A stretch of DNA of 64,000 bases from assembly GCA_023250155.1 (NCBI GenBank), contig JAHFBG010000006.1, positions 78,963-142,962 of the forward strand, read 5' to 3'. Position numbers and translations under genes: made by a program. Positions 3,701-33,984 of the stretch are shown here, piece after piece. The notes below the pieces were generated by a model. The model was not told the DNA's origin and ran no database searches. It saw only the letters and a list, made by a program, of their open reading frames with translations. The first letter of the stretch is position 1. Each line of letters begins with the position of its first letter. Source of the stretch: Candidatus Melainabacteria bacterium. GTDB lineage: Bacteria > Cyanobacteriota > Vampirovibrionia > 2-02-FULL-35-15.

Positions 3701-3802
3701 ATGTTATTAGCTGGTCAATTATTTCTTGTTGTAGCTTTTTTAGTATTGTTTATCGTTTCACTTTTAATGTCAGATCCAGAGAGCGTGGAGTCTGAGAACT
3801 AA
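3701..3802 (+). CDS. Possible 33-aa hydrophobic peptide (MLLAGQLFLVVAFLVLFIVSLLMSDPESVESEN)
   Basis: ATG-to-TAA ORF below the track cutoff. One TM-like helix plus an acidic tail. Its 3-prime 60 nt recur at 9098-9157. Weak SD (AGGGG). Confidence 0.3.
   Translation: MLLAGQLFLVVAFLVLFIVSLLMSDPESVESEN
3739..3798 (+). repeat. Direct repeat A1 (60 bp, identical to 9098-9157)
   Basis: TTTAGTATTGTTTATCGTTTCACTTTTAATGTCAGATCCAGAGAGCGTGGAGTCTGAGAA is found twice in the same orientation. Confidence 0.9.
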
Positions 3803-6289: not shown

Positions 6290-6350
6290 AAAACAACCAA
6301 ATCTTTTTCAATTAGCTTTTGAAAAACCTTGGGTCGCAAAGGACTTGAAG
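6290..6350 (-). pseudogene. Scar: 3-prime fragment of an MNT-type nucleotidyltransferase gene fused to a tRNA-3-prime-like fragment
   Basis: 6290-6324 is identical to 9168-9202, the 3-prime end of the MNT gene (the reverse strand reads FQKLIEKDLVVL). The following TTGGGTCGCAAAGGACTTGAAGC resembles the 3-prime halves of the tRNAs at 9855 and 10096. Confidence 0.6.
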
Positions 6351-9097: not shown

Positions 9098-9157
9098 TTT
9101 AGTATTGTTTATCGTTTCACTTTTAATGTCAGATCCAGAGAGCGTGGAGTCTGAGAA
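9098..9157 (+). repeat. Direct repeat A2 (60 bp, identical to 3739-3798); truncated copy of the small-peptide ORF end
   Basis: Same 60-mer as A1. The upstream sequence here has in-frame stops, so only the C-terminal part of the peptide ORF is duplicated. Confidence 0.9.
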
Positions 9158-9442
9158 TTAGTGAGTTAAAACAACCAAATCTTTTTCAATTAGCTTTTGA
9201 AATGTAGGGCTCATATTTTCCCAGCTAACTATATCAACTTTAAAAGGTAAATCTGATTCTTCAAATTGTTCTTTTATGCTTGAGATTACTTTTCCTGGTA
9301 TTTTTTCTTTGTAGCAAAGATCTAAATCAGAATTCTTTCTTGCTTTTTTTTTAGCTCGTGAACCATATACATAAAATGTATAAGAGTATTTTTTTAAGAT
9401 CTCTTTTACTATCGTCAAATGTTTTTCTTTTATATCAACCAT
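9158..9442 (-). CDS. Nucleotidyltransferase-domain protein (MNT/HI0073-like; antitoxin partner of HEPN)
   Basis: YVYGSRAKKKARKNSDLDLC is the GS...DxD minimal NTase motif. 94 aa, 6 nt downstream of the HEPN-like gene. Confidence 0.8.
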   Translation of the reverse strand: MVDIKEKHLTIVKEILKKYSYTFYVYGSRAKKKARKNSDLDLCYKEKIPGKVISSIKEQFEESDLPFKVDIVSWENMSPTFQKLIEKDLVVLTH

Positions 9443-9835: not shown

Positions 9836-9854
9836 TAGTTCATTCTTAAAAACC

Positions 9855-9926
9855 TGGGCTACAAGGGACTCGAACCCATAACCTAACGCTTAAGAGGCGT
9901 GTGCTCTACCATTGAGCTAGTAGCCC
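9855..9926 (-). tRNA. tRNA-Lys (anticodon CUU)
   Basis: The reverse complement folds as a cloverleaf: acceptor GGGCTAC/GTAGCCC, D arm GCTC-AATGGTA-GAGC, anticodon loop CTCTTAA, T loop TTCGAGT. There is one mismatch each in the anticodon and T stems. CCA is not encoded. Confidence 0.8.
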
Positions 9927-10095
9927 ATAGATTGATTGTGCCTTCCTTATTCATTTTATTTAGAGCGAAGGTTTTTCTATATACGAAAAACCTGAGCGTC
10001 GATAAAGTGTGTGAATAAAATGCCATCTAATTAATCTTTGAAAGTCAGGGCACATCTTTACACTTGTTGTAAAATGTGCCCTGCGTAATAAAAAA

Positions 10096-10175
10096 TGGGC
10101 GCTGAGGGACTTGAACCCACACGGTTACCCATATGATCCTAAGTCATACGCGTCTGCCAATTCCGCCAAGCGCCC
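10096..10175 (-). tRNA. tRNA-Leu (anticodon UAG), long variable arm
   Basis: The reverse complement is GGGCGCTTGGCGGAATTGGCAGACGCG...TATGA-CTTAGGA-TCATA...GGGTTCAAGTCCC...AGCGCCCA. This closely parallels class II Leu tRNAs. Confidence 0.9.
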
Positions 10176-10276
10176 CTTTTCTTTTTTGATAGCTCAAGAC
10201 AAGCTTGAGCTTCCATTGACTATGCCAATCACTTGATCGGATTTATCGAATGAATCGGATAAACCCTTTCTAAGTG

Positions 10277-10349
<73 letters not shown>

Positions 10350-14891: not shown

Positions 14892-16694
14892 ATGAAACAA
14901 AAATACCTAACAAAGTCAGATTTTAAAATAGCCCAGGACTGTCCAACAAAACTTTACTATAAAAAACTTGACTACCCGAATATCCTTGAGCAGGATGAGT
15001 ATTTAAAACTTCTTGCAGATGGTGGATACATAGTAGGTAAGATGGGTAGATTACTTTATCCGGATGGAATAGAAATTGAAATTGATGAGGACATAGAAAA
15101 AGCAATAGAAAAAACTAAAGAGTTCTTAAAAAAAGAAAATATAACTTTATTTGAGCCTATTATTAACATTGATGGCTTATTTATAAAAATTGATATTCTG
15201 ATTAAAAAAAATAATAACTTTGATCTTATAGAAGTAAAGTCTAAATCCTATGATAGTTCACCTGAAAAGAATTTATTTATAAGCAAAAAATCCAAGTGGG
15301 AACCTTACTTTGAAGATGTGGCTTATCAAGTCTATGTACTTAAAAAAGCATATCCTACAGCTAATATAAATTCATTCTTATTGCTGCCAGACAAATCAAA
15401 AAGAACAAAAATAGAAGGTCTTGCCTCTTGGTTTAAGCTAAATAAAAACAGTAAAAACTATGATGTTGAATTTACAGGGGATTTAGAGGAACTCAGAAAA
15501 GATGACATTCTTACATGTGTATCAGTAAACAATCAGGTAAAAAGACTTTTACCAATAGTCGAGGAGAATGCAAAACTTTATCTGGACAGTGTTTCATCCA
15601 CCATTAAAAAACTACCGAATCAAATCACCAAAGACTGTAAACAATGCGAATACAAACTTGATTCAAAAATTGAAAGAAATGGTTTTGCTGAGTGCTGGGG
15701 AAAATCAGCATTTGTGGAACCTCATATTTTTGATCTTTATAATATGGGTACAATAGGCGGAAATAGAACTCCTTTTGTTAATGAGCTAATAGCTAATGGA
15801 AAAGTTAGCTTATATGATATGCCATTAGATAAGCTGACTAAAACCAGAGGTGAAAGACAAAAGCTACAAATAGAAATGACTAAAACTAATAAAGAGTGGA
15901 TTTCTCCTCAGATGAACAATGTTTTAGAAAGTCTTAAATATCCACTTTACTTTATTGATTTTGAAACATCTAGAATGGCAATACCATATCATAAAAATAT
16001 GCGACCTTATGAGCAAATAATTTTTCAGTGGAGCTGCCATAAAATCAGTGAGCCAAATGCAAAACCAGAACATTTTGAGTGGATAAATTTAGAAGAATCA
16101 TTTCCTAATTTTAAATTTGCTAAAAGCTTAAAAAACTGTATAGGTGATGATGGAACTGTTTTTATGTGGGCAAGGCATGAAAATACAGCATTGAGAGACA
16201 TTTATGATCAAATGTACATTTATAACCATGAAGATGAAGAACTAAAAAACTGGCTAAACGATATTACACAGTTTGCGACAGATGATCACTCTACAAGGTT
16301 AGTGGATATGAATGACTTGACCTTAAAGTATTATTTTCATCCAGAGATGAAGGGAAGAACTTCACTTAAATATGTTCTTCCTGCAATTTGGAAAAACAAT
16401 TCTTATTTACATGAAGTCTCATGGTTGAAAGAATATTTAAAAGTAGAAAATAAAAAAGTGCTTGATCCGTATGAAACCTTACAGCAAATTGAAATAGTAG
16501 GGAAGGCAGAAGTAATAAAAGAAGGTACAGGAGCAATGAGAGCGTATCAAGAACTGCTATATGGGCTGAATAAAGATAACCCTGAAATTAAAGAAAAATG
16601 GACTAAAATATTACTTCAATATTGCAAACTAGATACCATGGCTATGGTGATTGTTTGGATGCATTGGGAGAGGTTGGTTTCAAAGCAAAGTTAA
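14892..16694 (+). CDS. DUF2779-like protein (N-terminal PD-(D/E)xK/Cas4-like nuclease fold, C-terminal DUF2779 region)
   Basis: IDILIKKNNNFDLIEVKSKS fits a D...ExK nuclease motif. YFIDFETSRMAIPYH...IFQWSCH matches my memory of the DUF2779 signature (fLDFE...FQfS.H). Confidence 0.65.
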   Translation: MKQKYLTKSDFKIAQDCPTKLYYKKLDYPNILEQDEYLKLLADGGYIVGKMGRLLYPDGIEIEIDEDIEKAIEKTKEFLKKENITLFEPIINIDGLFIKIDILIKKNNNFDLIEVKSKSYDSSPEKNLFISKKSKWEPYFEDVAYQVYVLKKAYPTANINSFLLLPDKSKRTKIEGLASWFKLNKNSKNYDVEFTGDLEELRKDDILTCVSVNNQVKRLLPIVEENAKLYLDSVSSTIKKLPNQITKDCKQCEYKLDSKIERNGFAECWGKSAFVEPHIFDLYNMGTIGGNRTPFVNELIANGKVSLYDMPLDKLTKTRGERQKLQIEMTKTNKEWISPQMNNVLESLKYPLYFIDFETSRMAIPYHKNMRPYEQIIFQWSCHKISEPNAKPEHFEWINLEESFPNFKFAKSLKNCIGDDGTVFMWARHENTALRDIYDQMYIYNHEDEELKNWLNDITQFATDDHSTRLVDMNDLTLKYYFHPEMKGRTSLKYVLPAIWKNNSYLHEVSWLKEYLKVENKKVLDPYETLQQIEIVGKAEVIKEGTGAMRAYQELLYGLNKDNPEIKEKWTKILLQYCKLDTMAMVIVWMHWERLVSKQS

Positions 16695-16735
16695 TAATCA
16701 TCATTTTTGTTACTTCCTTATATGTTTGATTAAGC

Positions 16736-16811
16736 CCCGTAGGTATGGGTCGCTTATTTCTTACTAAAATCTTCAAGTAATATAAACAAAATAAGTAATG
16801 CTAAAATATAG
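16736..16811 (+). repeat. Cassette left repeat L1 (paralog of 21298-21376)
   Basis: CCCGTAGGTATGGGTCGCTTATTTCTTACTAAAATCTTCAAGTAATATAAACAAAATAAGTAATGCTAAAATATAG aligns with L2 with few mismatches. Contains an extended -10-like TGCTAAAAT about 25 nt before the DinD ATG. The first 16 nt are inverted at 18018-18033. Confidence 0.8.
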
Positions 16812-16831
16812 TTTTATTTAGAGGACTTTGA

Positions 16832-17680
16832 ATGAAAAAAGAAATTATAACAAAATTACATAAAAGTTTTGAAGAGGCTGCATACCAAGAAGATGGAGTT
16901 GAATATTGGCTTGCTAGGGAACTTCAAACTCTTCTTGAATATACAGAATGGCGTAATTTTCTTCAGGTGATAGATAAAGCTAAAGTAACGTGTAAAACCT
17001 CTGGTCAAGAGGTTGGGCATCATTTTGTTGACATCAACAAAATGATAACTTTAGCAAAAGGGGCCTCTAGAGATATTGATGACCTCATGCTGACTAGGTA
17101 TGCATGTTATTTAATAGCTCAAAATGGTGACCCTAGAAAAGAACAGATTGCATTTGCACAAAGTTATTTTGCTATTCAAACACGTAAACAAGAAATATTA
17201 GAAAAAAGAATTGAGTTGATTGAAAGGTTAGAAGCAAGGGAAAAGCTTACTGCTACTGAGACAGAATTGTCTGGAACGATTTATGAAAGAGGAGTAGATA
17301 GTAAAGGTTTTGGAAGAATAAGAAGCAAAGGAGACCAAGCTTTATTTGGTGGTAATAACACTTTGCAAATGAAAAAGAAATTAGGTATTCCTGAAAGTAG
17401 ATCGCTTGCAGATTTTTTACCTACAATTACTATAAAAGCAAAAGATTTAGCTACAGAGATTACAAATTTTAATGTAAAAAAAGCCGATCTAAAAGGTGAG
17501 CAAAAAATAACAGATGAACATGTGAAAAATAATCAGGATGTGAGAACCTTATTAGAAAAAAATAACATACTGCCAGAGACTTTACCACCAGAACAAGATA
17601 TAAAAAAATTAGAACGTGCTGTTAAAGCTGATGATAAAAAACTGTTAGAGGATATTAAAAAGTTGAAAAGAGATAAGTAA
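16832..17680 (+). CDS. dinD: DNA damage-inducible protein D
   Basis: WLARELQTLLEYTEWRNF, RYACYLIAQNGDPRK and AQSYFAIQTRKQE closely parallel E. coli DinD (SRYACYLVVQNGDPAKP...GQTYFAIQTRRQE). Confidence 0.85.
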   Translation: MKKEIITKLHKSFEEAAYQEDGVEYWLARELQTLLEYTEWRNFLQVIDKAKVTCKTSGQEVGHHFVDINKMITLAKGASRDIDDLMLTRYACYLIAQNGDPRKEQIAFAQSYFAIQTRKQEILEKRIELIERLEAREKLTATETELSGTIYERGVDSKGFGRIRSKGDQALFGGNNTLQMKKKLGIPESRSLADFLPTITIKAKDLATEITNFNVKKADLKGEQKITDEHVKNNQDVRTLLEKNNILPETLPPEQDIKKLERAVKADDKKLLEDIKKLKRDK

Positions 17681-17780
17681 AAGATACCAAAAGGTTTATT
17701 TTCAAGGGGAGCTGATAATAAAAATCAGATATTTATAGTTTCCTCTATGAAAACTGAGTATATTACAGCATATTTTATTT

Positions 17781-17932
17781 GAGCGAAGCGTAATACCCCG
17801 ATGCTTGTGTTGGGGATATAAGCGAGGGAAAGCAAACGACTTCCTTTGATGCGACGACTGTTGCCAAAGGCAAAAATTGGCGTAATACCCTGCTGCTTGC
17901 GGCAGGGATAGCCGATTTAGGGAAGTCGTTTA
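17781..17932. other. GC-richer, highly structured non-coding segment (candidate ncRNA or REP/MITE-like array)
   Basis: Two GCGTAATACCC-hairpin-GGGATA units (17788-17820 and 17879-17910). Hairpin TTGCCAAAGGCAA (17861-17873). Long-range complementarity AAACGACTTCC (17834-17844) with GGAAGTCGTTT (17921-17931). Confidence 0.5.
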
Positions 17933-17951
17933 TTTTCATATGACTTGAATC

Positions 17952-18033
17952 AGAACTAACCTGGAGCGGAAAAAACAAGAATAGGATAAAGTAAAATGCT
18001 ATGTAGGTTTGGGTTATGACCGATACCTACGGG
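17952..18033 (+). repeat. Cassette right repeat R1 (paralog of 22536-22615) ending in the inverted terminal repeat
   Basis: AGAACTAACCTGGAGCGGAAAAAACAAGAATAGGATAAAGTAAAATGCTATGTAGGTTTGGGTT matches R2 with three substitutions and one indel. GACCGATACCTACGGG (18018-18033) is the reverse complement of 16736-16751 with one mismatch. Confidence 0.8.
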
Positions 18034-18095
18034 AGATGAGGTGTTAATCCACTTGAAATTAATGTAAATTTATTTTTCCAATCCTTATATTTTTT

Positions 18096-19322: not shown

Positions 19323-19362
19323 TATTTATAAAGCCATTTATTGTAAAGCATGAGGTTTATAA

Positions 19363-19584
19363 ATGGCTAGATGGCATACAAGATTAAAAAAGGCACGAGA
19401 AGCAATTGGATTATCATTAGCTGGTGCTGTCAAGCTATTGTATGAAAGTGAGAAAATCAAAATTCACAGAACTTTTTTAGGTCAAGTAGAACGTGGTGAA
19501 TCTGATTTAACAACCAGTAAATTTAGAGGTTTATGTAAAATTTATTGTGCAGATTCAAATTGGGTTTTGGACTTGAAGGAATAA
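19363..19584 (+). CDS. XRE-family helix-turn-helix protein (module copy A)
   Basis: RLKKAREAIGLSLAGAVKLL...FLGQVERGESDLT is a Cro/CI-type HTH pattern. Paralog at 26984-27232 shares the C-terminal LC.IYC...NWVLD.KE. Confidence 0.7.
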   Translation: MARWHTRLKKAREAIGLSLAGAVKLLYESEKIKIHRTFLGQVERGESDLTTSKFRGLCKIYCADSNWVLDLKE

Positions 19585-19586
19585 AT

Positions 19587-19979
19587 TTAGTACTTCGTTT
19601 CTTCCAACCCCTGCATCCCCATATCCTGAATTAAATAAAACAAATTATCTTCAAAGTAATCTTGAGTTGGTGTACCGATTTGACTGATGATTTTATTAAA
19701 ATCTAAGTTCTCTGGAATCGATCCATTTTGAATGATTGGTATAACTAGCTTTTTAAGTGATTCTGCAGGGAGACTTCCTTTTCCATAGACCTTGTCTCCC
19801 CAAGGTAGACCTTCTGATTCATTGATAGCATTTATTAAATGAGTCTTTTCTTCTGGCTTGAGATTTTTCAAGAAGTCATTTAATGATTTTGTTTGTAGTC
19901 CTTCTATACCTGATTTAACTGGTCTTGGAATAGGCTTTCCAACTACTAAGAATCCAACGTGCCTTACAAATATAGTCAT
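19587..19979 (-). CDS. Hypothetical 130-aa protein (module copy A)
   Basis: SD AAGGAG 6 nt upstream. Paralog at 28830-29219 is nearly identical except for the last ~14 aa. No recognised motif. Confidence 0.65.
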   Translation of the reverse strand: MTIFVRHVGFLVVGKPIPRPVKSGIEGLQTKSLNDFLKNLKPEEKTHLINAINESEGLPWGDKVYGKGSLPAESLKKLVIPIIQNGSIPENLDFNKIISQIGTPTQDYFEDNLFYLIQDMGMQGLEETKY

Positions 19980-19994
19980 GTGTTTCTCCTTAAA

Positions 19995-20186
19995 TTACAT
20001 GGGGGTATGGTTTTGTAAGGTGTACTCTAAAAGCTCTAGCTCCTCTTTACGTACATCATCATTGTTTTGTAATGACTGTAGCTCATCACCCTCATAATAT
20101 TTTTCTAAATCTTTCACTTTTTTGAGGGCACTAATTCTTTCCTTGATTTCATTGAAAAGCTTAGGGTTCATTCCATTAATTCTCAT
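19995..20186 (-). CDS. Hypothetical 63-aa acidic/helical protein (module copy A)
   Basis: Precedes the 130-aa gene by 15 nt. Paralog at 29235-29426 has the same length and conserved ends (MRI.GM...HTPM / YTPM) but many substitutions. Confidence 0.55.
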   Translation of the reverse strand: MRINGMNPKLFNEIKERISALKKVKDLEKYYEGDELQSLQNNDDVRKEELELLEYTLQNHTPM

Positions 20187-20268
20187 AACTTTATCACCTA
20201 CTTTATCTCTGATTAGTTTAAAGCAGTTAATCTTGTATTTCTCAATTTTGTAAATGATCTTTTACACT
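20177..20268. promoter_or_regulatory. Divergent promoter/leader region, 92 bp identical to 29417-29508
   Basis: Block-by-block comparison shows no mismatch across 92 bp, while the flanking coding sequence differs at many positions. Lies between the divergently transcribed 63-aa and ~315-aa genes. Confidence 0.6.
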
Positions 20269-20291
20269 TGTTTTCTGGGAATAGCATTGAT

Positions 20292-21236
20292 ATGAGTGCT
20301 ATTACTAATGCTGGTTTTAAATGGGGTGAAAATCTATCATGGGCTAAAGCTAATGTTTTTCACGGAAGAAACTCATTAGTATATGGTTTATCTGCTACTA
20401 CTCTTGGATGTATTAAGACACTTATTAATGAAGATTCCTTTTCTTACAAAACCTTAGATTTGTTTCAGTCTACTTTTTTAGGACTAAGAAGTAATCAGCA
20501 GTACAGCATCTACTCAAGAAAAAAAGATGATGATTTAGGTTTTGATGAAGTACATAGGCCACATGCTGCAAACATAGGAGAGTTAGCATGTTTTATAGAA
20601 AAGAAAATAAATCCTATAGCATTACCCTTAACTACTGCTTTAGGAAATGAAGTAAAAGAAAGCTATCATTTAATAGCTCACTTAGCTAATGCTTTATGGT
20701 GGAGGAGCAGGTTATTCTCACAGAAAATCAGTTGGAAATTATTTAAACATATTCCTAGACTTTTTCAACAACTAATAAATTCAACAAATAAGAATCTTGT
20801 AACTAATCAAATCAGTGAGATTGTTTCTCCATCATTAGGTCTCATAGGTTTTGCTTTTTGTGGCTTATTCACACCTATAAAATCTTGGCTTAAATTTAAA
20901 GGGACGGAAAATAAAATCATTGATTCATTAGCATCAGTAGGTACTGCTACTCAGCATTTGATTTATTTTTTTAAATTTACCCTACCTCAGATATTTCATT
21001 TTCAAGAGAATAACAAATATGAACACAAAAAATTATTTAACATGGGTATTTGTGCAAATGCTTTAAATATTGGATTGCCCATAATTGATCTTTTGTCTTT
21101 TGAAAATGGTTTTTTAAATAAAGCACAAAGATTATATAAAGAACTAGCGTCTGGATTTACTATGGCATTTTTCTCTAGTAGAAGGTATTTTATGGGAAAG
21201 GCATGGGTGGATGGGAATAATAATCCTTCATTATGA
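20292..21236 (+). CDS. Hypothetical ~315-aa protein with several hydrophobic segments (module copy A)
   Basis: ATG at 20292 aligns with the ATG of the paralog (29532). The two share long identical stretches (NAGFKWGENLSWAKANVFHGRNSL..., TENKIIDSLASVGTATQHLIYFFKFTLPQIFHFQEN...). No known motif. Confidence 0.65.
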   Translation: MSAITNAGFKWGENLSWAKANVFHGRNSLVYGLSATTLGCIKTLINEDSFSYKTLDLFQSTFLGLRSNQQYSIYSRKKDDDLGFDEVHRPHAANIGELACFIEKKINPIALPLTTALGNEVKESYHLIAHLANALWWRSRLFSQKISWKLFKHIPRLFQQLINSTNKNLVTNQISEIVSPSLGLIGFAFCGLFTPIKSWLKFKGTENKIIDSLASVGTATQHLIYFFKFTLPQIFHFQENNKYEHKKLFNMGICANALNIGLPIIDLLSFENGFLNKAQRLYKELASGFTMAFFSSRRYFMGKAWVDGNNNPSL

Positions 21237-21297: not shown

Positions 21298-21376
21298 CTT
21301 GTAGGTATGGGTCGCCTATTTTCTTACTACAATCTTTAAGTAATATAAACAAAATAAAAGTAATGCTAAAATGTAG
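21298..21376 (+). repeat. Cassette left repeat L2
   Basis: CTTGTAGGTATGGGTCGCCTATTTTCTTACTACAATCTTTAAGTAATATAAACAAAATAAAAGTAATGCTAAAATGTAG aligns with L1. TGCTAAAAT lies upstream of the YhcG-like gene. Confidence 0.8.
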
Positions 21377-21409: not shown

Positions 21410-22453
21410 ATGAATGATTTAATGAAAGCAAATGAATACTATAATCTACTGACTGAGATTAAATCTAAGATTCGTCAAGCACAGCTTAAAGCTACTCTAG
21501 CTGTTAATCAGGAATTGATTTTGCTTTATTGGCAAATGGGTAATTCTATTCTTATCCAAGAACAGCAAGGAGGGTGGGGGTCTAAAGTTATAGACCACTT
21601 AGCTAAAGACCTTAAAGCTGAATTCCCTGAAATGAAGGGGTTCTCAATACGAAACCTAAAGTATATGAGGACTTTTGCTAAACATTATAAGGATTTAAAC
21701 TTTGTGCAACAAGCTGTTGCACAAATTCCATGGGGGCATAATTGCATTATTTTGGATAAAATTAAAGATGACAAAGAGAGAGAATTTTATATCAATGAAA
21801 CTGTCAAGAATGGCTGGTCTCGGAATGTAATGGTTCACCAAATTGAGAGTAATCTCTATCAAAGGCAAATTCAATCTGATAAAACTCATAATTTTAAAAC
21901 TACGCTAACTAAACCTCAATCTGATTTGGCACATGAAATACTCAAAGATCCATATAATTTTGATTTTCTTAGCCTTGGGCAAGAAGCTAAAGAAAAAGAT
22001 CTTGAAAACGCTTTAGTAGAGCACATTACAAAATTTTTACTAGAGTTAGGAGCTGGTTTTGCTTTCATCGGAAGGCAATATCATTTGGAAGTAGATAATC
22101 AAGATTTTTATATCGATTTGCTTTTTTATCATACTCGCTTACATGCTTATGTTGTTATTGAACTTAAGCTTGATGATTTCAAGCCAGAGTATGCAGGTAA
22201 ACTAAATTTCTATCTATCTGTAATTGACAAAACATTAAGAAACAATAATGATAAACCTTCTATCGGCATTATTCTCTGTAAAAACAAAAATAAAATCGTT
22301 GCAGAATATTCTTTGCAAGATATGACTAAGCCAATAGGGGTTTCTGAATATCAGCTCACAGAAGCAATTCCTGAAGATCTTAAATCCAGCTTACCAAGTA
22401 TAGAAGAGCTGGAGAATGAACTTGCTAGTTATCAAGAAATTGGAGGAAAATGA
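21410..22453 (+). CDS. YhcG-family PD-(D/E)xK nuclease (DUF1016)
   Basis: The N-terminus (IRQAQLKATLAVNQELILLYWQMG, GGWGSKVIDHLAKDLKAEFPEMKGFSIRNLKYMRTFA) and the C-terminal core (FYIDLLFYHTRLHAYVVIELKLDDFKPEYAGKLNFYL) are typical of DUF1016/YhcG. Confidence 0.85.
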   Translation: MNDLMKANEYYNLLTEIKSKIRQAQLKATLAVNQELILLYWQMGNSILIQEQQGGWGSKVIDHLAKDLKAEFPEMKGFSIRNLKYMRTFAKHYKDLNFVQQAVAQIPWGHNCIILDKIKDDKEREFYINETVKNGWSRNVMVHQIESNLYQRQIQSDKTHNFKTTLTKPQSDLAHEILKDPYNFDFLSLGQEAKEKDLENALVEHITKFLLELGAGFAFIGRQYHLEVDNQDFYIDLLFYHTRLHAYVVIELKLDDFKPEYAGKLNFYLSVIDKTLRNNNDKPSIGIILCKNKNKIVAEYSLQDMTKPIGVSEYQLTEAIPEDLKSSLPSIEELENELASYQEIGGK

Positions 22454-22461
22454 TAAAAATA

Positions 22462-22520
22462 GCTGGTTTCGACAGGCTCAACCAGCCAGTGATGCCTGAG
22501 CTAGTCGAAGGCACCACTGA
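22462..22520. repeat. GC-richer double hairpin (REP-like family 2 copy)
   Basis: GCTGGTT-TCGACAGGCTC-AACCAGC and AGTGATGCC-TGAGCTAGTCGAA-GGCACCACT stems. The first loop matches the loop of the 3475-3562 element. Confidence 0.6.
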
Positions 22521-22535
22521 TAAAAATAAAAACTT

Positions 22536-22615
22536 AGAACTAACCTGGATCGGAAAAACAAGAATAGGATAAAGTGAAATGCTATGTGGGTTTGGGTTGT
22601 AGGATGTCTAGGGGA
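22536..22615 (+). repeat. Cassette right repeat R2 with degenerate terminal motif
   Basis: Matches R1 over about 63 bp. The following GTAGGATGTCTAGGGG only loosely resembles the R1 terminal GACCGATACCTACGGG. Confidence 0.7.
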
Positions 22616-26983: not shown

Positions 26984-27232
26984 ATGAAGGTAGTTAAACC
27001 TAAAAAAAGTAATGACAGTTGGAATAAAAGACTTAAAATTGCCAGGGAAGAAATGGAGTTGTCTTTAACTGGAGCCTTGAAACTTTTATATGAAACTCAT
27101 AAGATACGCTGGAGTAAATCTCAACTATCAAAAGTTGAAATGGGGATATCAAACTGTGATGTATATAAATTTAAAGCTTTATGTGATATTTACTGTGTAG
27201 AACCAAATTGGGTCTTAGATTGGAAGGAGTAA
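26984..27232 (+). CDS. XRE-family helix-turn-helix protein (module copy B)
   Basis: Paralog of 19363-19584 (RLKIAREEMELSLTGALKLLYE...LCDIYCVEPNWVLDWKE). Confidence 0.7.
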   Translation: MKVVKPKKSNDSWNKRLKIAREEMELSLTGALKLLYETHKIRWSKSQLSKVEMGISNCDVYKFKALCDIYCVEPNWVLDWKE

Positions 27233-27249
27233 CAGATCAGATATTTTAT

Positions 27250-27303
27250 TTCCCATCCAACCCCCACATCCCCATTTCCGGAATCAAATAAAACAAATTA
27301 TTT
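27250..27303 (-). pseudogene. Relic of the 3-prime end of a 130-aa-family gene
   Basis: TTCCCATCCAACCCCCACATCCCCATTTCCGGAATCAAATAAAACAAATTAT aligns with 19597-19650, the 3-prime end of the copy A 130-aa gene, directly after the HTH stop as in copy A. Confidence 0.65.
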
Positions 27304-27373
27304 TTAAACTCTTATAGTTTGTTGGTTCTTAGAATTTGGTTTCCTAAGTACCAACCCTTTGGTAGCTAAACAG

Positions 27374-28789
27374 CTACTTCTTTATCTCCCACCATCCACC
27401 CTTATCAGGCCCAATTCTCTTTAGTAATTCTTTTTGTTTTAGCTTTTGTATGTTTCGCTTAATGGTACGTTCATCTAGTTTTAAAGTTTCAGATAACTTA
27501 CTTATAGTAATCTTTGTGTTTCTCTTTATTGCAAGATAAATTTTCAACTCAGAAGAATCCTGTTTTAGAAGATTTTCTGGGGCATTTTCTGGGGCATTTT
27601 CTGGGGCATTCTTTGATCTGTAAAACACAGTAGAAAATCCTGATTTGAGAACTTTAAACTCAACCTTTACATTATTTTCTTTACACTCATCATATATTCT
27701 CTTTAAGCCTGAACCCCATTTTTCAATATCCTTACTAAGATAAAGATTTATAGCAATAAGAGGATTTCTTAAAACTGATTGCTCTTCTCCCTTAATAAAA
27801 TCCTGGGGTGACAATCCTTCAGGGAACTTGCCAGGGTTAAATATATCAACTCTATCTTTAAATATAGCTATTTGATTCCCTTCCCCTCTCCAATAATCTC
27901 TATGACAAAGTGAGTTTACTAAAGCTTCTCTGAGTGCATCAATTGGAATTTCTGGGATTTCTACACGCTTAAAATCCTTAAACTCTACTCTCCAATTAAT
28001 ATGTTCTTTAACATATAACTCTGATTGTTCAAGTAAATCAAAAAGATTACCTTTTAACAGCTTTATATCAAGAAAATTTCCTTTATCAGTACCTGAAAAA
28101 ATTGCAAGTTGTACTTCAAGAGGGTTTTCATTACAAAATAAAACCTCTCCTGCCTTCAAAAGTTTCCTATCTTTTATTAAATCTAATTTCTTTAGTGTTG
28201 TTGTAACGTCTTTAAATTTATAATCTATCCTTTTTGCTAAGTTAGCTCTTTTTATATATTCTCGAAGAACTTTAGAATTGACTTTGCTTATTGGTTTATC
28301 TGAGTATTTATTATCCCAGCGTAGCTCATCCTTATTCTTTTTTATAAACATACTTTCTAACTCTTTTGCACTTAGTTGCCTGTTTTCATCTCCAACTCTT
28401 ATGTATGCCCTACCATATACAAAGTAAGGAATATTATTTCCTTCAAACTCAACTTGAAGACAACTTTTCTTATTAGTTTCTATCTTTGCAACTTTTGGAT
28501 AAATCTTTGGTTCAATGTGTTCTGCAATTGATCTTGAAACTTCTCTTATAGTATTTTGTGTAACATCTTGACCTATCACTTCACCATTATCTTTCATTCC
28601 AAAATAAACATCACCTTTTTTATGTTTATTAAGAATTGAGGCTATTGAAATAACTGCCTCTTTTAATTCAGAAGTTGATTTTTTTAATTCTATAGTTTCC
28701 GATTCTTTTAAATAGGTCTTCATGCTATTAATTTTAACGTAAATCATATCTTGATTTTCAGTATACGTTAGCTGTTTATCCTGGTTCAA
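27374..28789 (-). CDS. Schlafen/AlbA_2-domain protein with HATPase_c_4-like region and C-terminal wHTH (RecG-like putative regulator/sensor)
   Basis: ESETIELKKS...VISIASILNKHKKGDVYFGMKDNGEVIGQDV fits the AlbA_2 pattern. ALREALVNSLCHRDY is typical of this family. The C-terminus is basic and HTH-like. Confidence 0.7.
   Translation of the reverse strand: MNQDKQLTYTENQDMIYVKINSMKTYLKESETIELKKSTSELKEAVISIASILNKHKKGDVYFGMKDNGEVIGQDVTQNTIREVSRSIAEHIEPKIYPKVAKIETNKKSCLQVEFEGNNIPYFVYGRAYIRVGDENRQLSAKELESMFIKKNKDELRWDNKYSDKPISKVNSKVLREYIKRANLAKRIDYKFKDVTTTLKKLDLIKDRKLLKAGEVLFCNENPLEVQLAIFSGTDKGNFLDIKLLKGNLFDLLEQSELYVKEHINWRVEFKDFKRVEIPEIPIDALREALVNSLCHRDYWRGEGNQIAIFKDRVDIFNPGKFPEGLSPQDFIKGEEQSVLRNPLIAINLYLSKDIEKWGSGLKRIYDECKENNVKVEFKVLKSGFSTVFYRSKNAPENAPENAPENLLKQDSSELKIYLAIKRNTKITISKLSETLKLDERTIKRNIQKLKQKELLKRIGPDKGGWWEIKK
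27573..27608. repeat. Perfect 12-bp x3 tandem repeat inside the AlbA_2 gene (encodes NAPE x3)
   Basis: TTTTCTGGGGCA is repeated three times head to tail. In frame. Confidence 0.9.
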
Positions 28790-28829
28790 ATCTAATGAGT
28801 TACATGATGGTATGCTACAACAGCTTACT

Positions 28830-29219
28830 TCACGACTTCCTATCCAACTCTCGCACTCCCAGCTCTTGAATTAAATAAAACAAATTATCTTCAAAATAAT
28901 CTTGGGTGGGTGTACCGATCTGATTGATGATTTTATTAAAGTCTAAGTTTTCTGGAATTAATCCATTTTGAATGATTGGTATAACTAGCTTTTTAAGAGA
29001 TTCTGCAGGGAGACTTCCTTTTCCATAGACCTTATCTCCCCAAGGTAAACCTTCTGATTCATTAATTGCATTTATTAAGTGAGTCTTTTCTTCTGATTTG
29101 AGATTTTTTAAGAAGTCATTTAATGATTTTGTTTGTAGTCCTTCTATACCTGATTTAACTGGTCTTGAAATAGGCTTTCCAACCATTAATAACCCAACGT
29201 GCCTTACATATATAGTCAT
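28830..29219 (-). CDS. Hypothetical 129-aa protein (module copy B)
   Basis: Paralog of 19587-19979, with the same SD and a different C-terminal tail (ELGVRELDRKS). Confidence 0.65.
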   Translation of the reverse strand: MTIYVRHVGLLMVGKPISRPVKSGIEGLQTKSLNDFLKNLKSEEKTHLINAINESEGLPWGDKVYGKGSLPAESLKKLVIPIIQNGLIPENLDFNKIINQIGTPTQDYFEDNLFYLIQELGVRELDRKS

Positions 29220-29234
29220 GTGTTTCTCCTTAAA

Positions 29235-29426
29235 TTACATGGGGGTGTAACTGTCTCTGCTCTCCTCACATTCAGCAAGCTCTTTTAGTCTAAGCTCGTC
29301 ATTATTTTGTAGGGCTTCTAATTCTTTATCTTCGTAAAACCTTTCTAATCCTTTGTTAGCTCTAAGAGCCTCAATCCTTTTAGCAATTAATTCTGCAAGT
29401 CCAGGATCCATTCCAGTAATTCTCAT
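29235..29426 (-). CDS. Hypothetical 63-aa protein (module copy B)
   Basis: Paralog of 19995-20186, with the same length and synteny. Confidence 0.55.
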   Translation of the reverse strand: MRITGMDPGLAELIAKRIEALRANKGLERFYEDKELEALQNNDELRLKELAECEESRDSYTPM

Positions 29427-29508
29427 AACTTTATCACCTACTTTATCTCTGATTAGTTTAAAGCAGTTAATCTTGTATTTCTCAATTTTGTAAATGATCT
29501 TTTACACT
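29417..29508. promoter_or_regulatory. Divergent promoter/leader region, identical to 20177-20268
   Basis: See 20177-20268. Confidence 0.6.
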
Positions 29509-29531
29509 AATCTTCTGGGCATAGTACTAGT

Positions 29532-30473
29532 ATGAATGCTATTACTAATGCTGGCTTTAAGTGGGGTGAAAATCTCTCCTGGGCTAAAGCTAATGTTTTT
29601 CATGGGAGAAACTCATTAATATATGGTTTATCTGCTACTACTCTTGGATGTATTAAGACACTTATCCATGAAGATTCATTTTCTTATAAAGCCTTAGATT
29701 TACTTCAATCTACCTTTTTAGGTCTAAGAAGTAACCAGCAGTACAACATCTACTCAAGAAAAAAAGATGATGATTTAGGTTTTGATGAAGTACATAGGCC
29801 ACATGCTGCAAACATAGGGGAGCTAGCATGTTTTATAGAAAAGAAAATAAATCCTATAGCATTACCTTTAACTGCTGCTTTAGGAAATGAAGTAAAAGAA
29901 AGCGATCATTCAATAGTACATTTGGCTAATGCATTGTGGTGGAGAAGCAGGCTTTTTTCAACTAAAATCAAGTTGTCGAGATTGCAATATATTAAAGATG
30001 ATTTAGTTAAGCTATGCAGAGCAAACTTAGAGGTTAAAAAGTTATCAGCATCACATTTAGAAAGTATTATTTCACCATTATTAGGTCTTATTGGCTTTGT
30101 TTCATGTGGCTTATTCACACCTATAAAATCATGGCTTAGATTTAAAGGAACTGAAAATAAAATCATTGATTCATTAGCATCAGTAGGTACTGCTACTCAG
30201 CATTTGATTTATTTTTTTAAATTTACTTTGCCTCAGATATTTCATTTTCAAGAGAATAAGAAATATGAACACAAAAAATTATTTAATCTGGGTATTTGTG
30301 CAAATGCTTTAAATATTGGATTGCCCATAATTGATCTTTTGTCTTTTGAAAATAGTTTTTTAAATAAGGCACAAAGATTATATAAAGAACTAGCGTCAGG
30401 ATTTACTATGGCATTTTTTTCTAGTAGAAGGTATTTTATAGGAAAGGCATGGGTGGATGGGAATAGGTTGTAA
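29532..30473 (+). CDS. Hypothetical 313-aa protein with hydrophobic segments (module copy B)
   Basis: Paralog of 20292-21236, with a replaced central segment (aa 143-179). Confidence 0.65.
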   Translation: MNAITNAGFKWGENLSWAKANVFHGRNSLIYGLSATTLGCIKTLIHEDSFSYKALDLLQSTFLGLRSNQQYNIYSRKKDDDLGFDEVHRPHAANIGELACFIEKKINPIALPLTAALGNEVKESDHSIVHLANALWWRSRLFSTKIKLSRLQYIKDDLVKLCRANLEVKKLSASHLESIISPLLGLIGFVSCGLFTPIKSWLRFKGTENKIIDSLASVGTATQHLIYFFKFTLPQIFHFQENKKYEHKKLFNLGICANALNIGLPIIDLLSFENSFLNKAQRLYKELASGFTMAFFSSRRYFIGKAWVDGNRL

Positions 30474-30500: not shown

Positions 30501-30545
30501 TGTCATTGCGAACCCTGAATGAAATGAAGGGTGAAGCAATCTCAC
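30501..30545 (+). repeat. CATTGCGA...GCAATCTCAC element, left flank of the GIY-YIG gene
   Basis: TGTCATTGCGAACCCTGAATGAAATGAAGGGTGAAGCAATCTCAC. Its ends are inverted at 30898-30929. Confidence 0.8.
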
Positions 30546-30573
30546 GATTGATCAAACGAGAATGAGGCCACCT

Positions 30574-30867
30574 CTATTTTAGTGTTAGATATAAATCCTT
30601 CATGTCTTTGTTCATTGATTCAATAAGCTCAAGCTTTTTTTTCCTTGAACCTGCTTTTATTTGTTTTTCTCTAGCTATTGCTAAATTGATGTCTCTAAAA
30701 GTTTCATAGTAAAGAAGATCTTTAACGTTATATCTAGAAGTAAAGCCTTTTGTTGAATTGTTTCGGTGTTCATAAATCCTTCTTGTTAGGTCATTTGTAA
30801 CACCTGTATAAAGGACTGTTCTAGACTTGTTTGAAATTATATAAATAAAATAACGATATTCTTCCAT
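30574..30867 (-). CDS. GIY-YIG nuclease family protein (URI domain, COG2827-like)
   Basis: YFIYIISNKSRTVLYTGVTNDLTRRIYEH, YNVKDLLYYE and AIAREKQIK match the GIY...YTG...R...H...E pattern. Confidence 0.85.
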   Translation of the reverse strand: MEEYRYFIYIISNKSRTVLYTGVTNDLTRRIYEHRNNSTKGFTSRYNVKDLLYYETFRDINLAIAREKQIKAGSRKKKLELIESMNKDMKDLYLTLK

Positions 30868-30897
30868 GGGTTTTTGATATTATGCGGTTTATGCTAT

Positions 30898-30929
30898 GTG
30901 AGATTGCTTCGCTTATGCTCGCAATGACA
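30898..30929 (-). repeat. CATTGCGA...GCAATCTCAC element, right flank of the GIY-YIG gene (inverted)
   Basis: GTGAGATTGCTTCGCTTATGCTCGCAATGACA. Its reverse complement is TGTCATTGCGAGCATAAGCGAAGCAATCTCAC. Confidence 0.8.
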
Positions 30930-30955
30930 AAGAATTAAGTAAAACACAATATCCA

Positions 30956-33288: not shown

Positions 33289-33336
33289 AAGGCATCACAT
33301 TTTGTGATACCTTAAGATTTTTGATACAATTACCAT

Positions 33337-33807
33337 ATGTATAAGAAGCTAAAACTTTATATTGATACATCTATCTGGAATCTTGCTCTTGAACATGATA
33401 GAGATGAGTATTCACTAACTCATGATTTTCTAGAAGTTTATAGTCATAGTAAAAACAGTTTGCTTATATCAGAAGTGGTTGAGATTGAAATTAATAGGGC
33501 TTATGATACTAGGCGTAAACAATTGTTAAAGCTAATTGAAAGATATAAACCAGAAGTTTTGATTCCTACTAATGAAGCATATAGCTTGGCTAAGATTTAT
33601 ATTACTGAAGATTTAATGCCAGCTAGTGCTATAAATGATGCTATTCATATTGCAATAGCTAGTTTAAACCACTGTGATTTTATTGTCTCATGGAATTTTA
33701 AACATATTGTTAGGGCTAAAACTATTAAAGGTGTACATGTGATCAATTTACGAGAAGGTTATAGTTTAATTGAGATTGTTTCACCTAGAGAATTTATTTC
33801 ACAATAA
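33337..33807 (+). CDS. PIN-like domain protein (putative toxin)
   Basis: LYIDTSIWN at the N-terminus and NDAIHIAIASLNHCDFIVSWNFKHIV near the C-terminus resemble a PIN-like family (D...DA.HiA.A...D.lvSWNfKHi). Confidence 0.55.
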   Translation: MYKKLKLYIDTSIWNLALEHDRDEYSLTHDFLEVYSHSKNSLLISEVVEIEINRAYDTRRKQLLKLIERYKPEVLIPTNEAYSLAKIYITEDLMPASAINDAIHIAIASLNHCDFIVSWNFKHIVRAKTIKGVHVINLREGYSLIEIVSPREFISQ

Positions 33808-33817
33808 GGAGAAAAAT

Positions 33818-33976
33818 ATGAGAAAAAAAGAACAGGATCCACTTGCTGAATTGCATAAAATAAGAAAAGAAATCTATAATGAAACAAAACATCTATCTGC
33901 TGCTGAATATGTAAAATATATTAGAAAAGAAGCAGAGAAGTATAAGAAATCATCAAAGAAGAAAAAAACCGCTTAA
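33818..33976 (+). CDS. Small lysine-rich protein, putative partner of the PIN-like protein
   Basis: SD AAGGAGAAAAAT before ATG 33818. DPLAELHKIRKEIYNETKHLSAAEY resembles small proteins that I recall beside this PIN-like family. Confidence 0.45.
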   Translation: MRKKEQDPLAELHKIRKEIYNETKHLSAAEYVKYIRKEAEKYKKSSKKKKTA

Positions 33977-33984
33977 AAAATTTT

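Follow-up and report, generated by a model that had tools for sequence, protein, structure and literature searches.

Similar flanks around unrelated DinD and YhcG genes of a Melainabacteria contig may derive from a decayed type III restriction-modification slot

In a 64-kb window of DNA from Candidatus Melainabacteria bacterium, which is the whole stretch analysed here and part of a 153.6-kb metagenome contig (ENA ERZ27280021 k141_2555058, 32% GC), two unrelated genes are each enclosed by a left repeat (L) and a right repeat (R). The first gene encodes a DinD protein of 282 aa (16832–17680; features lie on the plus strand unless stated otherwise). It carries the Pfam domain Bro-N (PF02498, E = 1.9e-10), matches the PADLOC model PDC-S13 over its full length (387 bits, residues 1–276) and is 75–91% identical to proteins named 'DNA damage-inducible protein D' in their sources. 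The second encodes a YhcG/DUF1016 nuclease of the PD-(D/E)XK type with 347 aa (21410–22453), recognised by PF17761 (DUF1016_N, 160.6 bits) and PF06250 (YhcG_C, 226.8 bits) and by a full-length match to PADLOC PDC-S02 (522 bits). Both of these cargo genes are intact. The two units, each consisting of L, a cargo gene and R, are 3.2 kb apart, and the genes between them are unrelated. Directly upstream of the first left repeat lies a DUF2779 gene (14892–16694, Pfam PF11074). The layout of the locus was identical in the contigs of other samples wherever these reached either unit. Repeat copies and Pfam domains were surveyed over 81 kb of the contig, including ±10 kb extensions of the window (Pfam tables and scans: contig 57.7–139.3 kb); several open reading frames (ORFs) in this region had no Pfam match.

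The left repeats, L1 (16710–16811) and L2 (21271–21376), were identical in 91 of 107 aligned columns (85%) in a local alignment, and under laxer scoring their similarity reached 16823/21388. The right repeats, R1 (17952–18034) and R2 (22536–22615), share a core (17952–18015 and 22536–22598) with 60 identities out of 64 in a local alignment (94%), beyond which a weaker similarity runs out to 18034/22615 under laxer scoring. Exactly two copies of L and two of R were found in the window, compared with a shuffle expectation of about zero. The initial annotation had noted that the repeats around DinD recur around the unrelated YhcG gene, and these alignments confirmed it. The similarity stops short of DinD and YhcG, which have no similarity to each other, so the locus is not a plain segmental duplication either.

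We found that R begins with former coding sequence. A 40-aa ORF is called after YhcG; in its frame, R2 reads DKNKNLELTWIGKTRIG and then a stop codon, and the translation includes DKNKNLELTWIGKTR. R1 reads ESELTWSGKNKNRIK, also followed by a stop. The methyltransferase at one YhcG locus (L108) starts with MSKQKLELTWIGKEKRPKLEPRILLED / MSKQKLELTWIGKEK; it matches the PADLOC model MTase_III from residue 1 (765 bits) and is followed by a type III Res. When viral contigs were scanned with back-translated LELTWIGK, 30 of the 33 matches proved to be Mod-type N-termini. These take the form M..K.KLELTWIGK(E/D).RP.LEPRIL..GDNLLALKALEQE and continue to IDPPYNTG where the printed stretch reaches that far. 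At the DNA level, the first 31–34 nt of R2 are 85–88% identical to real mod gene starts. The window was then cut in six frames into 6390 pieces of forty residues, all of which were scored with a profile made from 29 Mod N-termini. The pieces from R2 took the first two ranks with 12.8 and 11.4 bits, where the best background piece reached 6.3 bits, and those from R1 ranked fifth and eighth. On these comparisons, the first ~35–45 nt of R are the dead 5′ end of a type III mod gene, ~15 codons long. The fossil of the YhcG unit covers about codons 2–16 (DKNKNLELTWIGKTR, 22519–22563) and overlaps the start of R2. In the DinD unit it comprises the first ~15 codons (17940–17985, including ESELTWSGKNKN), frameshifted, homologous to the R2 stub and overlapping the start of R1.

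The stub was recognised only through the back-translated DNA scan. With the 40-aa ORF spanning R2, a word-indexed search returned nothing but the ORF itself and a full HMMER scan returned one spurious repeat protein, and tblastn and PDB searches with the short R2 peptide were empty. A continuation of the fossil past R, suggested by the look-alikes DKVKCYVG, VLIHLKLM and VFD.CSTG, was not supported by the profile test.

Mod genes are also the neighbors of the closest YhcG homologues. Relatives of 55–77% identity occur in bacteria and archaea, the nearest of them in Vampirovibrionia/Melainabacteria. The closest homologue (84%, locus L047) stands in the order SNF2 helicase–DUF4391–YhcG–Mod–Res–HAD–DUF2779 ... 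AbiEii, and the type III restriction-modification (R-M) models of PADLOC give 690 bits for its Mod and 999 bits for its Res. YhcG is directly followed by Mod in L049 (77%), the order is DUF4391–YhcG–Mod in L171 (76%), and YhcG lies between Mod and Res in L050 (72%) and L108 (55%). In L047, L049 and L171, mod starts at the end of YhcG or overlaps it. The window has a similar junction: a former mod start, ATGATAAAAATA (22450–22461), overlaps the stop codon of YhcG in the manner of intact operons, and the overlap of this stop with ATGATAAAA is likewise seen in L047 and L171. DNA homology to L047 and L048 reaches 22467, 14 nt past the YhcG stop. A string made up of a ribosome-binding site and a start, GGGAAAATGATAAAAAT (with the same GGRAAAATGATAAAAAT), follows DinD in L129, a short contig from a sample that also contains the window strain; none of 500 shuffles gave a match as good. 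The DUF2779 and AbiEii families are common to the window locus and the L047 island; the AbiEii gene of the window is located further upstream of L1 than the DUF2779 gene.

As a separate observation, a SNF2/HKD helicase, DUF4391, type III Mod and type III Res form a recurrent operon in L047, L049, L050 and L171, with YhcG before or after mod. The helicase corresponds to the PADLOC candidate model C3a139 (HKD+Snf2), and DUF4391 is rarely mentioned in the searchable literature, in two papers.

In both units, a GC-richer insert is found between the cargo gene and the stub or within the stub. The mod stub behind YhcG is split by 56 nt (22462–22517, 59% GC) forming a double hairpin with a fold z-score of -3.6. 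An 11-nt direct repeat, TGATAAAAATA, flanks this insert at 22451–22461 and 22518–22528. The core of the insert, CCTGAGCTnGTCGAAGG (17-mer class), was found at no fewer than 120 loci in viral contigs, some of them in tandem, whereas an arbitrary 15-mer gave 19. Between DinD and its mod stub lies a 161-nt insert (17775–17935) with two 31-nt hairpin repeats and 47% GC, compared with 32% for the window. Two Logan contigs from different runs both stop inside it, at 17802.

The other end of the units can be compared with DinD loci. Homologues of DinD with ~75% protein identity are spread across Nitrospirae, Bacteroidota, Desulfuromonadaceae and archaea. DNA homology to the close loci begins at 16793–16797, which is 35–39 nt 5′ of the ATG. 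Four of these loci (L024, L031, L027 and L129) have the sequence AATGnTAAAAT ~25 nt before the ATG; more distant DinD loci do not. Because this sequence is common to the four loci and because the homology starts where it does, the last ~20–30 nt of L can be assigned to the promoter of this DinD lineage. The 3′ end of L is thus a predicted extended -10 promoter (TGnTAAAAT), with TGCTAAAAT at 16799–16807 in L1 and at 21364–21372 in L2. The L2 copy before YhcG bears the same DinD-type promoter (AAGTAATGCTAAAATGTAG). To judge from the sequence, this promoter probably still drives both cargo genes.

These identities lead us to suggest that the DinD and YhcG units are two paralogous copies of one decayed accessory slot of a type III R-M operon, a reading to which we give a probability of roughly 55%. 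The ancestral slot would have been located just upstream of mod, the usual place of accessory, defence-candidate genes such as DinD and YhcG/DUF1016. L would be its intergenic leader, made up of a weak terminator-like hairpin, an AT-rich tract and the extended -10 promoter. R would be the mod start, ~15 codons (M..K.LELTWIGK..) and a junction of ~45 nt left when the rest of mod was lost. Over these ~45 nt past the mod codons R1 and R2 are ~90% identical, so the truncation junction should be older than the split of the two copies. As the junction is shared, the block would have been copied after mod had died. Small GC-rich hairpin elements may have been inserted later between the cargo and the stub. 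The difference in cargo might have arisen if an ancestral L–DinD–YhcG–mod array lost different genes in the two copies, or if a gene was replaced through recombination in the conserved flanks. That L appears native to DinD and R to YhcG fits the former route. Since the repeats can be identified as a mod stub and a DinD promoter, the flanks would be alike by descent and not via recognition by a recombinase.

The decayed slot differs from the initial annotation, which proposed a gene cassette or a non-autonomous element. Part of that proposal still stands: the flanks are the same, the cargo is different and the cargo genes are highly mobile. That L and R themselves form the ends of an element is not supported, considering that R starts with the mod fossil, that L ends with the predicted DinD promoter and that the termini are not kept in the YhcG unit.

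It is also conceivable that two type III R-M operons were acquired independently, with DinD in the slot of one and YhcG in that of the other, and decayed separately. The occupant of the slot does vary, and YhcG stands before mod in L047 but after it in L050. For either cargo gene, the nearest relatives belong to other phyla. Moreover, with only two copies, shared boundaries carry little weight, because similarity ends wherever the shorter remnant ends. However, the identity of R1 and R2 in the part past about codon 15, where no Mod similarity is seen, points to a single truncation before the split. In addition, L2 bears a DinD-type promoter though its cargo is YhcG, and no further remnants of mod or res are detectable beside either unit. 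We therefore regard independent acquisition as quite improbable.

Several observations weigh against the decayed slot itself. The profile detected no Mod similarity in R past about codon 15, although R1 and R2 remain ~90% identical there. The 5′ 83 nt of L had no identified origin after comparison with mod starts and with L047-type loci; a derivation of L from the 3′ end of a DUF4391-like gene was considered and dropped, the similarity to L047 being weak only. No mod body, res or other operon gene was found beside the units, where no ORF has an R-M Pfam domain; the SNF2, DUF4391, Mod and Res proteins of L047 were run by tblastn against the YhcG loci. An ancestral DinD–YhcG array was not present among 80 YhcG loci. 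The literature places dinD in type I R-M operons. The nearest homologues of the DinD gene (83–91%) sit outside R-M operons: one in an integrative element, others in a hydrogenase/complex I operon, in a metal-resistance cluster and in a repeat array. When every fetched DinD locus was searched by BLAST, R and the 5′ part of L were both absent beside them. Simple decay also does not explain how L...R, or L and R separately, came to be copied 4.5 kb apart around different genes.

The edges of the units add to these difficulties. The ends of the DinD unit, CCCGTAGGTATGGGTC (16736–16751) and GACCGATACCTACGGG (18018–18033), are complementary at 15 of 16 positions, which was equalled by only one of 300 shuffles of both end regions. 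A 13-nt motif of the GTAGGT type, GTAGGTWTSGGTY, had five matches with at most one mismatch in the window, all at unit edges, with both edges of both units represented, and none elsewhere in the 64 kb, against 0.11 expected, although the motif was derived post hoc from the edge sites themselves. By a hand count on the alignments, identity falls from ~90% inside the motif to ~60–67% just outside it, which is what the boundary between an element and its target would look like. Finally, 18003–18030 resembles an 11-6-11 palindromic core. It belongs to a right-end palindrome (18003–18033, unstranded) consisting of GTAGGTTTGGGTT, AT and GACCGATACCTACGGG, and thus includes the right inverted terminus; it is the sole full site among the four unit ends.

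These edge features raise the possibility of a cassette that carries no recombinase and is specific to the lineage. The motif or the 16-nt termini would then be sites for a host or distant recombinase or transposase, and the unit, including a captured mod stub and the promoter, would be copied or moved with exchangeable cargo, like dif modules or elements bounded by miniature inverted-repeat transposable elements (MITEs). Apart from the edges, such a cassette would fit the different intact cargo within the same flanks, and the dead mod junction common to both copies suggests that the block was copied as a unit. If L, R and the motif do represent a private cassette family of this uncultured AT-rich lineage, blocks consisting of one defence-type gene with a promoter and a captured mod stub would have been copied to new sites by a host recombinase at the motif, and their cargo would be exchangeable.

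On closer inspection, the edge features of the two units are unequal. The initial annotation described 16-nt inverted termini with one mismatch. This holds for the DinD unit, while the YhcG unit has a decayed inverted partner with about 10 of 16 matches, no better than shuffles. L2 still holds the motif at 21301–21313 and R2 at 22586–22598. The left ends have a half-site only, that is, a single arm. The left terminus of the DinD unit contains the motif together with a weak terminator-like hairpin and a following T-rich run, as revealed by a terminator scan. The initial annotation also pointed out that R ends much as L starts. This likeness is real but weak by itself: the best ungapped direct match between the left and right sides was 12/13 in the DinD unit (reached by 12 of 300 shuffles) and a non-significant 11/13 in the YhcG unit (reached by 126 of 300). 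In the DinD unit, the two motifs at these ends match each other at 11 of 13 positions. Two other origins of the motif were rejected. As a tRNA-Lys-like att site, its best alignments were matched by 10–14 of 300 shuffles over 24 tests, which is not significant; as a fragment of the DUF2779 3′ end ('VWV' codons), it had no counterpart, since an nhmmer profile gave no such match in L or R.

Other observations also argue against a cassette and against L and R as recombination sites. No flanking direct repeat, that is, no target-site duplication, was seen on reading the junctions of both units. The Pfam tables and scans for contig 57.7–139.3 kb contained no recombinase or transposase domain, with several ORFs matching no Pfam family, which agrees with the initial annotation on this point. 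The arrangement is fixed in the contigs of every sample that reaches either unit. A close copy of DinD from the same community (L129, 87% DNA identity) lacks both R and the 5′ part of L.

Furthermore, as far as could be searched, which did not include the complete source genome, L and R occur only at these two sites, with two copies in 81 kb and none in any collection scanned. A 21-mer of L had no match in 185,579 species-representative genomes, and a 21-mer of R had none in viral contigs. A 15-mer of L had 19 matches in viral contigs, all by chance and none extending past the 15-mer, and a gapped L pattern gave one chance match in JGI metagenomes, inside a Bacteroidetes-like coding sequence. 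Searches of L and R against plasmids, and of the whole unit against phages, returned AT-rich chance matches or the DinD gene only. BLAST of L and R against the fetched DinD loci and the 80 YhcG loci (about 90 loci together) and against ±10 kb contig extensions found nothing. Considering both sides, we think it unlikely that the units are cassettes of this kind, and a private family of them in this lineage is similarly doubtful.

L129 deserves a description in this context. It is a 2.7-kb contig (1–2677; ENA ERZ27276474 k141_5871954) with a DinD module and a module of a PIN gene plus a 52-aa ORF, the latter 82% identical to window 33319–33979. Each module lies between direct copies, ~45–110 nt long, of the 3′ end of DUF2779 (window 16588–16705), and the contig ends repeat internal pieces. 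From its sequence, it looks like a small module array built at the end of a DUF2779 gene. That 1-kb DinD and PIN modules are parted by direct repeats here favors the cassette alternative, in that reshuffling of 1-kb defence or toxin genes does occur in this gene pool, though with different repeats. If a private cassette family existed, the same process would have produced the L129 modules as a sister form.

Selection on regulatory DNA might also have preserved the likeness of the L and R copies. L would then act as terminator, operator and promoter, R as terminator or operator, and a regulator controlling both nuclease-like genes together would bind at the GTAGGT-type motif. The terminator-like hairpin and the conserved extended -10 promoter in L, the recurrence of the motif at the unit edges and the intact state of both cargo ORFs would agree with this. 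However, a regulatory role cannot explain a dead coding fragment in R, and the YhcG unit no longer has the palindrome. L and R folded with z-scores of -0.6 to -1.0 (-0.6 for both R1 and R2), indicating no significant RNA or DNA structure, and Rfam searches at gathering and E-value thresholds returned only tRNAs and noise. The absence of the motif elsewhere in the 64 kb also means that there is no regulon in the window. Selection on regulatory DNA thus seems very unlikely to have produced these flanks.

If the units are indeed copies of a decayed R-M slot, different genes can come to lie between identical flanks with no cassette system at work. In that case DinD and YhcG/DUF1016 would be interchangeable tenants of one slot in an R-M operon, whose promoter and first mod codons would outlast the decay of the operon as short repeats that mimic the ends of an element. 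This would be a caution for repeat-based searches for mobile elements, and the locus would be a small, dated case of the erosion of a defence island in an uncultured lineage.

Some other features of the window and its neighborhood were recorded. Within the DinD coding sequence, 17019–17046 (HFVDINKM) forms a near-perfect 28-nt palindrome, CATTTTGTTGACATCAACAAAATG, which is kept in close homologues and is the source of weak microRNA-like Rfam matches. The DUF2779 protein has two variants of at least 90% identity, P0248 with 599 aa from a contig of 61 kb and P0249 with 402 aa from one of 3.9 kb, whereas at 90% identity each housekeeping protein of the window stands alone; this suggests that the DUF2779 gene is multi-copy or mobile in the community. 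Among the best NCBIfam matches are a TopA model of chlamydial type and NdhF and NdhD models of cyanobacterial type, a mixed picture of the lineage. A four-gene segmental duplication links 19362–21219 with 27011–30465 (86% DNA identity over 1.6 kb, proteins 54–89%), and its second copy is split by ~1.5 kb (27309–28842) containing a 471-aa ORF without a Pfam match. On the minus strand, a 97-aa GIY-YIG nuclease gene (30574–30867) is bracketed by inverted repeats at 30503–30933, namely TGTCATTGCGA...GAAGCAATCTCAC (30503–30548) and GTGAGATTGCTTC...TCGCAATGACA (30899–30933). It comes just after a paralogue of the gene in front of the YhcG unit, and each of the two paralogous sites thus has a different small nuclease. 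Intergenic repeats are also found at 9098–9160, 98% identical to 3739–3801, and at 9168–9202, 100% identical to 6290–6324. They adjoin toxin-antitoxin genes (PemK; a nucleotidyltransferase and its substrate-binding partner) and lie just before three tRNA genes (Lys, Leu and Arg; 9854–10349).

Compared with known systems, both cargo proteins resemble the PADLOC candidates PDC-S13 (DinD-like) and PDC-S02 (YhcG-like) over their full lengths. These are candidate single-gene phage-defence systems, for which nothing is known about shared flanks. With integron cassettes the units have in common single genes of ~1.3 kb, a shared 3′ repeat and the lack of a recombinase within the unit. Unlike integron cassettes, they have no attC-type conserved imperfect palindrome (a hairpin is seen in R1 only), their cargo has its own promoter, the 5′ repeat is shared as well and R is partly a dead coding sequence. 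No integron integrase (IntI), attI or cassette array was found in contig 57.7–139.3 kb.

The dif modules of Acinetobacter plasmids, which are flanked by pdif sites, are also small and free of recombinases, and their cargo is varied and includes toxin-antitoxin and defence-type genes. A likeness to their 11-6-11 palindromic core is seen at the right end of the DinD unit. In contrast to dif modules, a full palindromic site is present at one of the four unit ends and the left ends have single arms; there is no similarity to known dif arms, the copies number two and the setting is chromosomal. The 16-nt terminal inverted repeats of the DinD unit (15/16) recall MITEs and passenger transposons bounded by terminal inverted repeats, from which the units differ in having no target-site duplication, a decayed repeat in the YhcG unit, no other copies in the 81 kb and the scanned collections, and no cognate transposase found.

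The closest parallel to a decayed slot is an arrangement that is already known, the accessory-gene slot of R-M operons, in which 'hitch-hiker' genes (DUF1016/YhcG, DinD/RhuM, GIY-YIG and Fic) lie between the core genes (Milman et al. 2023, PMC9881135). The present locus differs in that the operon is gone, leaving ~15 mod codons and no res, and in that the remnant occurs twice, 4.5 kb apart, with different occupants. It agrees in that the same two gene families are involved and the closest YhcG homologues adjoin type III mod, and in that the YhcG stop of the window overlaps a former mod start and R encodes a Mod N-terminus.

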